Notes under the pieces: model-generated
What the model saw: only the letters and a program-made list of their open reading frames with translations
What the model was told of the DNA's origin: nothing
Databases searched by the model: none
IMG/VR virus record: IMGVR_UViG_3300031867_000013
Coordinates: 53,887 to 117,886 of that record
Source: a virus
Lineage: Duplodnaviria; Caudoviricetes
DNA length: 64,000 bases
Direction: 5' to 3' (one strand)
Made by a program: the position numbers and the translations under genes
Shown here: piece after piece, positions 6,758 to 11,310 of the stretch
Layout: each line of letters opens with the position of its first letter
Numbering within the stretch: position 1 is the stretch's first letter

Positions 6758-7487
6758 AATATTCTGAATATTTTTACTATTTCTTGATACATAATTATCA
6801 GAATATTATAAACATTATAATATATCACAATATTTTGCCAATGCCATAGAATTATCAGAAAATTAAGATGTGTCATAATATTATGTTAATCATCTGAAAT
6901 TGTCAGAATATTGTATGTATCATAATATTCTGAAAACTAGATGTGCATGAATTGTCAGAATATTAAAAACATTATATGTATTTGAATGAATTGTACATAG
7001 AACGAATACAATTTAATATGTCAATAGGAAAAAAGTCCAAAATGTATGTTCTATATAAAAAATAGGAGTAAAGTCTATTGACACATAAAAACAAGGGCAA
7101 ATAGTCCTATTATTTTAGAACAAAAATCGAACACTTCTAAGCCTTGCAATTATTGAAAAATCGTCATAGACGGACGAAAATCTATGTGCCTATATAAATA
7201 TATGCAGACAACATAAAAAACGATTCTAGGGGCATTTACGGGCGAATAAAGGGTATTTCTATATATTCATATATACCCATATTTTCCCTAAAAATATTTT
7301 TGTCTTTGACTTTTTGACTTATATGCAAGTTGTCAGAATATTATAAATACACATAATATTTATAGTATTATTAATATTATACTAATTATTTGATGCTATA
7401 CATTTGTAAATTAACATAATTTTCTGTCAATTTATATATCTATAATATTTTGAAAATTCAATAGATACATAAAGTTGTCAGAATATT
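6758..7487. promoter_or_regulatory. CodY-box clusters I and II (10 sites)
   Basis: 15-mers within 1-3 mismatches of AATTTTCWGAAAATT at 6758, 6793, 6850, 6898, 6924, 6950, 7328, 7418, 7444 and 7473. Confidence 0.75.
7139..7223 (+). repeat. 85-bp block repeat, copy A (copy B at 10406-10490)
   Basis: shared blocks AAGCCTTG, AATTA, AAAATCGTC, GACGAAAA, ATATAAATATATGC and ATAAAAAACGA with identical spacer lengths. Confidence 0.8.
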
Positions 7488-7738
7488 TTGCAATATATGT
7501 GTCAATGGGAAATATGTCTTATTTTTATTTGTCAATAGACCATAAGACTTATTTTTATATTTATTATATTTTCGCGTCACATAGGGATATAGAAAAATGT
7601 ATATGGCTTTTATTCGTGCATAAATAGGGCTACAATCAATTTTTATATGCTATTGGTATATCTATATAAGGATAAAATAAAAAGGGCTTAAATAGCCCTT
7701 TATGCTTGTTATATTGAATTGTGTATATAAAAAGACAA

Positions 7739-7765
7739 TTCCCCTGCCGTAATTAGCAGGGGAAA
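7739..7765 (-). terminator. hairpin terminator after the DUF932 gene
   Basis: TTCCCCTGC/GCAGGGGAA inverted repeat. Confidence 0.65.
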
Positions 7766-7784
7766 TATAGGGAAGATTATTTTA

Positions 7785-8702
7785 TCAGCCTACCAATGTT
7801 GAAAGCAATTCTAAAGCATTGTCAAGCAAAGCATTTCCGCGAATAACGCTTTTCATTTGATTTTCCCTGTAGGTCTTGGTCATGCGGGCAGGTTCAGAAT
7901 GATAGGCAAAATCCGATACAGCCTGCAAAAATCCATAAGCTGTGCCGCGCAAATTGCCTAAATCATCAGCGTTATAGGCTGAAATTAAGCCGCTACGTTG
8001 ATTTTCCACGATGTCCCGTTTGCGCGGCGTAGCGTCAGCAGGGAGCGGGAGCAAATTCCCAACGAGCGCATTAAACATAGTGTTTGAAACGTGAATACTT
8101 GCAAGGCGTTCTGTTTCTTGCTGAAAAATGGTACGATAGGAATTTTCATGTTCCATGATATTCCCGACCATTTCCAACTTCCCTGCTACGTCTCCTTTGT
8201 GGAGAAGGGAAAACGACCGAACGGCTTTCTTGAAGGCAAGGTTCAAAGTGTTAGAACAAGCAGGACGGACGGGAGTGATGGCGGCGCGAATTGCGCCTTT
8301 CCCATCATGCGTACTTGAGAAAACAACATACATTTTCATTGATTCGCCAAGGGTCATAAATTCGGGGACTTCTACGCACATCCATATTGTTTTGCCACCA
8401 CTGACAATTCCCGCCGAAACGAATTTGAAATCTGTCAAATACGTTAAGAAGGAAAAAGCATCTTTGTTTTGTACGGTCTGATAACGGTCTGATACCACAC
8501 CAAGAAAAGCGTTATTGTCAGAACGGACGTTTACCTTCATGGGTGTTTCGAGGATATTACCGTCTGCAAGGCGAATCAATGCGGGAGTTTGTACGACTTC
8601 CCAGTTCATATCAGCAAGGGAAATTGCGCTTTCCACATCCACCGCGCCCGAAATATCCTGTCCATACTTCCAAGGCTCTACACGATTCATCATTTTCAAC
8701 AT
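7785..8702 (-). CDS. DUF932 / TIGR03299-like phage-plasmid protein
   Basis: PW...DWEV...VRSD...LGVVSDRYQTVQN..AF...SAG...HDG...TPVRxxCxNTL; start at MLKMMN after AAAGGAG. Confidence 0.8.
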   Translation of the reverse strand: MLKMMNRVEPWKYGQDISGAVDVESAISLADMNWEVVQTPALIRLADGNILETPMKVNVRSDNNAFLGVVSDRYQTVQNKDAFSFLTYLTDFKFVSAGIVSGGKTIWMCVEVPEFMTLGESMKMYVVFSSTHDGKGAIRAAITPVRPACSNTLNLAFKKAVRSFSLLHKGDVAGKLEMVGNIMEHENSYRTIFQQETERLASIHVSNTMFNALVGNLLPLPADATPRKRDIVENQRSGLISAYNADDLGNLRGTAYGFLQAVSDFAYHSEPARMTKTYRENQMKSVIRGNALLDNALELLSTLVG

Positions 8703-9347
8703 TTTCAACACTCCTTTTTTAAAATAGATGATTAACCTATACATATTAAACCACAAACAAATAATTATTGCAAGCATTTTTTTTATAAAAATCATAAAAA
8801 AATTTTCCTTCCTATTATAAGGGAAAAATTTTTATAATTTACATATCTATTGAAATTGAGAATAATTTTTATTTGCCCATCGAGGATTTTATAATTTTCT
8901 GACAATTCCATAGGAAGATATAATAATATTCTGAAAATTTCAGGCGAATAGAGGAACACAAAATTTTCTGAAAATTTATAAAAATTTGACTTCCATATAA
9001 TTGTTTTAAGCGATTTTTTCAGACTATTCCATATATTTATACTAATAAGAATTTTTCGTGTCTTAAAACTAATTTCTTAAAGTATTGAAAATACTGACTT
9101 TTCAGGCTATTATGACAATTATAAACATAAATGTAAATATTCTGAATATTATACTAAATATTTAATGTATGGATTCTTATATATAGTATAATATTCTGAC
9201 AGATATAATATTCTGATAATTTTATGGCGCAAATAAAGATTTCAAAAAATTATGTGTTCCTTTAATAGATTAAAGTATAAAAATGTCAAGATATATATAT
9301 ACAATAAAAAATTCCCCCGCAAAAAGCAGGGGAATATGTATATATAT

Positions 9348-9524
9348 TTATTCTTCCTCCTTTTGTACGTCTACGACTTCTTTTACACCCAAGAAACGGA
9401 AATTATGCAAGTCAGAAGGAGTAAACCACTTTTTGCTTGCAATTTTAGCCGCTTCTTTTTCGTTCTTTGCATCAACGTAAATCTCCCCCGTAAAAACAAC
9501 GTCTACTTGCACTTGATACGTCAT
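9348..9524 (-). CDS. 58-aa hypothetical protein MTYQVQVDVVFTGEIYVDAKNEKEAAKIASKKWFTPSDLHNFRFLGVKEVVDVQKEEE
   Basis: AAAGGAGATGTT RBS, upstream promoter and downstream hairpin at about 9311-9336; below the ORF-track size cutoff. Confidence 0.75.
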   Translation of the reverse strand: MTYQVQVDVVFTGEIYVDAKNEKEAAKIASKKWFTPSDLHNFRFLGVKEVVDVQKEEE

Positions 9525-10405
9525 AAGAACATCTCCTTTTCATATAATAAATTCAACCTAACTATATTATACACATTACAGGATATAATGCAAGTGTTTT
9601 TTATAAAAAATCCTAAAATATTTTTCTTTCTATTATAAGGAATTGTCAGAATATTTAGTGTCTTTTGACAATGCACATTTGTTGGAACATTTTGTATTCT
9701 ATATATGGTAAAAATCATACTATTCTGAATATTTGCCTTGCTAGAGTAAGAGATTAAATTTTCAGAAAATTTCAAATTTGTCCACGGCATATCAAAATTT
9801 TCAGAAAAATCTAAATAATATAATACGTCAAATATATCTGAAATGTGCATAAATACTGACAATTAGGAATATTTCGGCGCAAACAAAAAGGAAACATAAT
9901 ATTCAGAAAATTAGGCAATTTTTTCCTATATAGAGAAATACAAATTAGTCAGAAAATTATAAAATATAAGAATAATATAATATGTCAGAATATAGGCGCA
10001 ACATAAAGGAATATGAATTTTCAGATAATTCTTATATATCTTATTATTCTTATATTTCGCGCAAAACAAAAAGGGATAAATATTCAGACAATTATATATA
10101 ATCATATATTTCTATATAATATTATATTTCTATATATAATATAATAATCAGACAATATAGAATATTATATGTATTCTACCAATATACATTTGTCAGAAAG
10201 TTTTGTATTTTCCTATAGGGAAAATTTATACTTTTCTGAAAACTTTCCTTGCGGCACTAAGGAAGTATAATTATCAGAAAATTATGATTTTGTCCACGAA
10301 TAATCTGAAATTTAATATTCTGACAATTTAAAATAAACTTTTTACTTGACAAATACAAATATAGGCAAATAGTACCAATAAAATAGAATGTATGTACGGG
10401 CTGGG

Positions 10406-10490
10406 AAGCCTTGAAATTAAAGGAAAATCGTCTGTATTCGACGAAAAAAGACTACCGAATATAAATATATGCGTACCATATAAAAAACGA
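10406..10490 (+). repeat. 85-bp block repeat, copy B
   Basis: aligns without gaps to 7139-7223. Confidence 0.8.
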
Positions 10491-11310
10491 CTGGCAAGGC
10501 TGCCAGATAGGTTAAAATGGATTTTAAGTATTGACAAAAACCTAAAATTTTATCATTCTTTGACTTTTTGTCCAATAAAGTTATATGTCTATATATAATA
10601 TAAATAGACATAATAATATGAATTGTCAGAAAATTAGGGCGCGGCAAAAAACAAAAAAGAGAAAGAGAATCATTATATATAGAGAGAATATATATCAAAT
10701 GAAAATAATTATTATTATATGATAATGATTATAGCTATATATATAGACAATATTGCTATTTTTCATAGTTTTCTGAAAATTTCTATATTTATGGTTCTTT
10801 AGTGTATTAAAGCACTAAATTAGTATGCTATTAACGTATTTATTCTTCTTTTCTTTAGTATAGTAAAGTAAGCGAGCGAAACAGGGAATATTTTTCACTT
10901 TTTGTCAATACTTCAAATTTTCAAAATTTAATATGAATAAAAACTATTTTCTTAATACTATAAATTTTCTATTTATTATTAATACTCTAAAATATAATTC
11001 TATATATTCTTTCTTTCTATATATCCATATATTTATATACTATCCCTCTTTCTTTTTTGTTTTTTGCGCCCAGGATAGTTTTATATATTATAGTATTATA
11101 TTTATATATATTAGACTTTATATATACTCCCATCTTTTTCTTTGTTTTCCGCGCCAAATATATATTATAGTTATATATAAAACATTATATTATGTATCCT
11201 CTTTTCTTTTTATTTTTGCCGCCAAAATATCCTTGAAATATACTTTATTTTATATATGAAAGTATACTCATATATTCATAAATAAATCAAACATACTTTC
11301 TATTATATAA

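Follow-up and report, generated by a model that had tools for sequence, protein, structure and literature searches.

Introduction

CodY is a nutrient-sensing master regulator of Firmicutes, a dimeric winged-helix protein that attaches to DNA under an ample supply of branched-chain amino acids and, in certain species, also of GTP. In this study we describe a dense field of CodY-type boxes in a virulent-looking phage of cattle-gut origin, represented by IMG/VR record IMGVR_UViG_3300031867_000013. Unless stated otherwise, all coordinates refer to a window of 64,000 nt that comprises bases 53,887-117,886 of this record. The boxes of the window are confined to a single island between two convergent gene blocks.

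The 15-nt consensus of the CodY box was taken from published work (PMC5314169; PMC10415144). CodY regulatory regions usually contain two boxes that overlap by 6 nt and together form a 24-nt site with cooperative binding, and CodY of Enterococcus faecalis binds a lone consensus site with a dissociation constant (Kd) of about 706 nM and not more tightly than sites in which cooperativity was destroyed (PMC10415144). The phage boxes share with these operators the 15-nt pseudo-palindrome with its invariant centre and arms tolerant of change. They differ in being phage-borne, in number (about 34 in 4 kb), in lying far closer to the consensus than is usual and in standing singly, whereas CodY operators are overlapping pairs; moreover, the phage sites are predicted from sequence.

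Host-regulator sites on virulent phages have been worked out in few cases. The virulent Bacillus phages phi29 and Nf carry a few Spo0A boxes at early promoters and origins, and binding to them was footprinted (PMC2731898). The likeness is that of a lytic Firmicute phage with apparent sites for a global regulator of its host, and in phi29 and Nf host physiology gates phage transcription and replication. In contrast to their handful of footprinted sites, the field described here is dense, lies mostly off promoters and was recognized in the DNA sequence. The injection-stop region of phage T5 contains eight conserved DnaA boxes, the role of which is itself hypothetical (bioRxiv 10.1101/866236). 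Both T5 and the present phage are large siphoviruses with an untranslated region of several kb that is rich in repeats and palindromes and follows a short early block with sites, here putative, for a host protein. The T5 sites are, however, for DnaA, and the region of T5 is part of a terminal repeat that has been mapped.

In the Fur titration assay, operator copies on a multicopy replicon titrate the regulator. Many operator copies on a multicopy replicon can likewise pull a regulator off its targets in transcription-factor decoy arrays, but these arrays are synthetic or eukaryotic cases (PMC3322331; PMC7826281). A full-text literature search retrieved neither a paper on CodY-box arrays in phages nor a decoy of CodY or Fur that occurs naturally in a phage.

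Abundance and motif of the CodY-type boxes

Sites were counted as 15-mers with at most two mismatches to the CodY consensus. The window contains 24 such sites (2 perfect, 9 with one mismatch and 13 with two), all of them inside 6758-10781, and the whole genome of 117,886 bp (GC 29.7%) contains 26, with the other 54 kb adding only two. Dinucleotide shuffles of the window contained 2.25 sites on average and never more than 7. Markov models of order 1-3, trained on 3,563 nt of non-coding island DNA with 23% GC, predicted 0.25-0.8 sites, so that AT richness fails to explain the boxes; the excess over these local-composition models is 30- to 100-fold. The low GC content of the island could suggest that the boxes are a functionless by-product of AT-rich, low-complexity DNA. 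This explanation is refuted by the shuffle and Markov controls, which expect from less than one to about two sites against the 24 seen, together with the conservation of the boxes across samples, and we assign it a negligible probability.

When the 34 non-coding TCWGA cores were aligned, information was confined to exactly 15 positions with flat flanks, and the matrix derived de novo equalled the published CodY consensus at 15 of 15 positions with the same boundaries. Mismatches occur at positions 4, 5, 12, 2 and 11, while positions 1, 6, 8 and 15 are invariant. The centre-to-centre spacing is irregular, mostly 26-72 bp, and no tandem array of boxes was found.

These results largely bear out an initial annotation that had been made from the letters of the stretch and had proposed about 30 CodY boxes. 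The coordinates it gave for the two perfect sites (8962-8976 and 9757-9771) and for all nine one-mismatch sites are correct, the mismatch positions agree with its description of a kept core with variation mainly at positions 4-5 and 11-12, and the counts uphold its remark that no comparable density occurs elsewhere in the window. The genome-wide 15-mer count that it had set as a check places 24 of 26 sites in 6758-10781, and AT content, which it had named as a possible refutation, did not account for them. Its view that the field is not a tandem duplication is right as far as the missing tandem array is concerned, but some boxes share short composite repeats, for instance three copies of a unit of about 37 nt at 9876-10093. 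The assignment to CodY itself is exact in length, symmetry and consensus and is accompanied by conservation in the clade and by a neighbouring Fur-type array; it does not extend to the overlapping 24-nt layout.

Conservation in related phages and the Fur-type array

The larger of the two genes in the island encodes a DUF932 protein, homologues of which with 77-86% identity were found in several other cattle-gut samples. Six contigs of these relatives (4-11 kb) contain 10-24 boxes each, which flank the DUF932 gene. Box columns were more often identical to the relatives than their flanks (82% against 71% and 74% against 65%). In the relatives that were compared, boxes 8893, 8925 and 8962 are retained at unchanged distances from one another; elsewhere boxes were gained and lost while density was maintained. 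In two distant syntenic relatives the DUF932 protein is 53% identical, and one of the two stems from a 119.7-kb contig. Each has a single site, which is at chance level, and no other palindrome was found in place of the boxes. In an intermediate relative, on a 103-kb contig, the island measures 2.4 kb, lacks DUF932 and contains no more than three or four boxes. The box-rich state of the six close relatives, the few boxes of the intermediate one and the chance level in the distant ones indicate that the box field expanded inside one sub-clade. BLAST of the island against isolated phages gave no match, and single-protein searches of IMG/VR revealed no close relatives.

A second array of palindromes lies before the island, in its neighbourhood:

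4731-4886: Fur-type array, about eight 7-1-7 palindromes with a period of 17-18 bp, downstream of a strong promoter at 4628-4657

By sequence match, this array has the 7-1-7 palindromes of a Fur operator, and its units equal or nearly equal the validated E. faecalis Fur boxes of the feoAB, EF3082 and fhu operons listed in PMC6056675. The array is present in those box-bearing relatives whose contigs extend that far; neither the distant relatives L007 and L009 nor locus L031 of the intermediate relative has it. Folding of 4731-4886 into RNA hairpins is also possible. Two neighbouring arrays that match different global regulators of the host appear unlikely for private operators of a phage.

Predicted binding of host CodY

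We tentatively read the boxes as a landing field for the CodY protein of the host, which would work as a nutrient gate, as a decoy or in both ways. This reading is ranked first, mainly because CodY-type and Fur-type arrays adjoin, and we hold it with somewhat less than even confidence. The boxes would be docking sites for the host's own CodY, the phage encoding none: domain searches of the genome detected no CodY-HTH, FUR, HTH_3, sigma region 4 or HTH_17 domain, and hence no recognisable phage regulator of these families. In a well-fed host with ample branched-chain amino acids, the island would become covered with CodY. Bound at boxes 7328-7342 and 9641-9655, it could gate island transcripts, including those from one of two promoters of a gene for a 58-aa protein, while the remaining boxes might insulate the convergent blocks from one another or form roadblocks between them. 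Once many genome copies are present, the boxes would also draw CodY off host operators.

An extended form of the decoy idea takes the whole island as a protein-free device for host takeover, in which operator fields for CodY and Fur, growing in number with the phage genome, would titrate both repressors away from the host chromosome. We regard this as rather unlikely. If true, amino-acid and peptide uptake as well as iron uptake would be switched on without a phage effector protein, and the iron would be useful to the ribonucleotide reductase of the phage. 

Apart from this extended form, a conserved field of CodY-type boxes next to a Fur-type array would mean that uncultured gut phages tie into, or manipulate, the nutritional and iron status of their hosts through DNA alone. 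Binding shown in one cultivable case could open this general question, and operators carried by phages could serve to guess their hosts.

Site layout and alternative binders

Several observations weigh against binding by host CodY, and the first of them concerns the layout of the sites. Only 2 of the 24 boxes have a partner at an offset of 9 nt (at most four mismatches), and the overlapping pairs of CodY operators are thus largely missing. Relatives of the clade show the same single-box layout. A scan of IMG/VR for paired near-perfect boxes retrieved nine unrelated contigs. Four of them carry dense arrays in 9-nt phase, in which the paired boxes range from 7 of 8 to 11 of 17, an overlapping layout from which that of the present clade differs:

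L024:13264-13516: unrelated 9-nt-phased CodY-like array
L026:10626-11311: unrelated 9-nt-phased CodY-like array
L027:182-2819: unrelated 9-nt-phased CodY-like array
L029:5153-5640: unrelated 9-nt-phased CodY-like array, which adjoins a gene for a gp3-type packaging protein and a run of G-rich iterons

Because only 2 of 24 boxes are paired and lone sites are bound with a Kd of about 706 nM, the field of this clade is predicted to consist of single, weak-to-moderate CodY sites. Such a layout suits many low-occupancy landing sites, or another protein.

The boxes could accordingly be private operators of a dimeric DNA-binding protein of the phage that prefers a CodY-like palindrome and would repress transcripts of the island or organize a nucleoprotein complex there. 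Dedicated sets of operators typically consist of well-spaced single palindromes close to the consensus, an arrangement that is unusual for CodY regions (PMC10415144). Most phage proteins are without annotation, and the binder might be a small protein that was not recognized as such. The other candidate is a 173-aa winged-helix protein of the HTH_36 family (E 1.5e-5), encoded where the plus block begins, upstream of the window (L030:953-1653, genome 51,634-52,334), together with a 60-aa ribbon-helix-helix protein. These two genes are followed by one for a weakly metallophosphatase-like protein and then by PhoH. The putative recognition helix of the HTH_36 protein differs between box-bearing and box-less lineages; since this difference also tracks phylogeny, the protein remains a candidate. 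That the HTH_36 protein may be the binder counts against host CodY. A relative whose HTH_36 protein is 86% identical has no more than three or four boxes, which speaks against both binders, and no boxes are located near the HTH_36 gene. The ribbon-helix-helix protein was rejected as binder, its DNA-reading strand being identical in a box-less relative, and so was the 58-aa protein of the island, which is acidic and missing from some box-bearing relatives. About 30 small early-type open reading frames (ORFs) near the island showed no DNA-binding Pfam domain. Private operators would further make the match to a known host consensus at 15 of 15 positions a coincidence, and the Fur-type array a second one. 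Overall, we consider a phage-encoded binder possible and somewhat less likely than host CodY.

Position of the boxes relative to genes and promoters

The arrangement of the boxes with respect to promoters likewise weighs against host CodY. The island is organized as follows:

6733-11395, no strand assigned: island, mostly non-coding, 4.6 kb, GC 23%, between two convergent gene blocks; contains all boxes
6715-6732: terminator at the end of the plus block
11396-11421: terminator at the end of the minus block
6758-6964: cluster I, seven boxes directly past the plus-block terminator; boxes 6758, 6850, 6898 and 6950 kept in relatives
7328-7487: cluster II, four boxes in a block strongly conserved in relatives
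8893-9221: cluster III, seven boxes including the perfect site 8962-8976, upstream of the DUF932 gene
9641-10328: cluster IV, about 16 boxes including the perfect site 9757-9771, upstream of the gene for the 58-aa protein
10621-10635 and 10767-10781: outlying pair of boxes with one mismatch each
7785-8702, minus strand: DUF932 gene, 305 aa, Pfam E 9e-43, with an identical 305-aa database protein
8773-8768 (-35) and 8750-8745 (-10), minus strand: best predicted promoter of the DUF932 gene
7739-7764 and 7681-7701: terminators of the DUF932 gene
9348-9524, minus strand: gene for the 58-aa acidic protein, with its best promoter at 9593-9588 (-35) and 9571-9566 (-10) and a terminator at 9311-9335

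The DUF932 gene and the gene for the 58-aa acidic protein are the only genes of the island; both are small, lie on the minus strand and have their own terminator and a duplicated upstream module. The literature gives no function for DUF932. The initial annotation had located clusters III and IV upstream of the promoters of these two genes and had allowed for their control by CodY. The position holds, but direct control of the promoters is probably weak because the majority of boxes are located past terminators, or 90-230 nt ahead of the best DUF932 and 58-aa promoters, rather than over core promoters. Exceptions are box 9641-9655, which occupies the spacer of another promoter-like element ahead of the 58-aa gene (-10 at 9637-9632), and box 7328-7342, which overlaps a conserved plus-strand promoter-like site (7314-7342 or 7330-7357).

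The duplicated module comprises 44 nt (8779-8822 and 9597-9640) and has a second -10-like element; in some relatives it is present as two tandem copies.

Host and origin of the phage

Most of the stretch was present in one sequencing run only, a bovine-gut metagenome that may be the source sample, while small shares occurred in other bovine-gut and rumen runs. No RNA runs carrying the stretch were listed among the matching sequencing runs. The genome encodes siphovirus-type tail, head, portal and terminase proteins, as well as PolA, helicases, a ribonucleotide reductase, a UvsX-like recombinase and a GH25 lysin. TerL and PolA are about 50% and 37% identical, respectively, to proteins from phages of Clostridium, Streptococcus, Bacillus and Staphylococcus, more than 20 promoters of the genome fit the sigma-A consensus with an extended -10, and the ribosome-binding sites have strong Shine-Dalgarno sequences. 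On the basis of these similarities, promoters and ribosome-binding sites, the predicted host is a Firmicute, a placement that goes no finer; a protein atlas likewise gave Bacillota or phage and nothing narrower.

This placement favours binding by host CodY, as does the presence of CodY in 170 of 201 sampled genomes of a Clostridia-type phylum and in Selenomonas ruminantium. Two points count against it. CodY is not universal in the likely host phylum, with 15% of the 201 genomes lacking it, and the best match of the lysin (53% identity) is from S. ruminantium, the GC content of which is very different from that of the phage. The S. ruminantium genome contained no boxes with one mismatch or less.

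The island as a possible structural region

The island could also be a cis-acting structural region, such as an injection-stop region like that of T5 or a replication or packaging site, at which host CodY and Fur would hold or mark the DNA and not control genes. It is a large untranslated stretch rich in repeats and palindromes, and it also contains the orphan -35-like boxes as well as further conserved elements without an RNA fold. Moreover, it follows the plus block of about 9 kb of small early-type genes, or about 7.6% of the genome, which is near the 7.9% of the first-step transfer of T5. Against this, there are no mapped physical genome ends at which to place the island, the terminase genes are 18 kb away, and the distant relatives are without boxes. 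Nor does the island have the features of an iteron-type origin, the spacing being irregular, with no tandem array and neither an excess nor a cluster of DnaA boxes. Taken together, a structural role appears unlikely.

Other elements of the island and its surroundings

The -35-like words carry a fixed 5' extension and have no suitably spaced -10; they were found at 7025(-), 7077(+), 7506(-), 7536(-), 10530(+) and 10909(-). They are conserved and confined to the island, and form arrays of up to five in relatives. Elsewhere in the genome, more than 20 copies of the -35 word belong to complete promoters that fit the consensus and have an extended -10.

A conserved element of about 85 nt occurs in two copies (7139-7223 and 10406-10490) and also in the distant box-less relatives L007, L009 and L033. 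Its minus strand contains small hairpins that vary and precede T runs, and no conserved RNA fold was found for the element overall. A second element of about 20 nt, G/C-headed and A-rich, is present in at least nine copies (4500-4620, 9228, 9876, 9994, 10058 and 10637, and reversed at 11045, 11128 and 11200), its orientation flipping near 10,800. Three copies are located 22 nt ahead of a box, and the element is also found in distant relatives. An Rfam scan of 4500-12500 yielded nothing near threshold. Just ahead of the minus-block terminator, an AT-rich repeat field (11305-11383) contains imperfect GAAC-N4-ATTC palindromes that loosely resemble Gram-positive SOS boxes.

Farther downstream, a 682-aa ORF (44228-46276) has both RNA-ligase and LAGLIDADG homing-endonuclease matches and may represent an intein or an endonuclease insertion.

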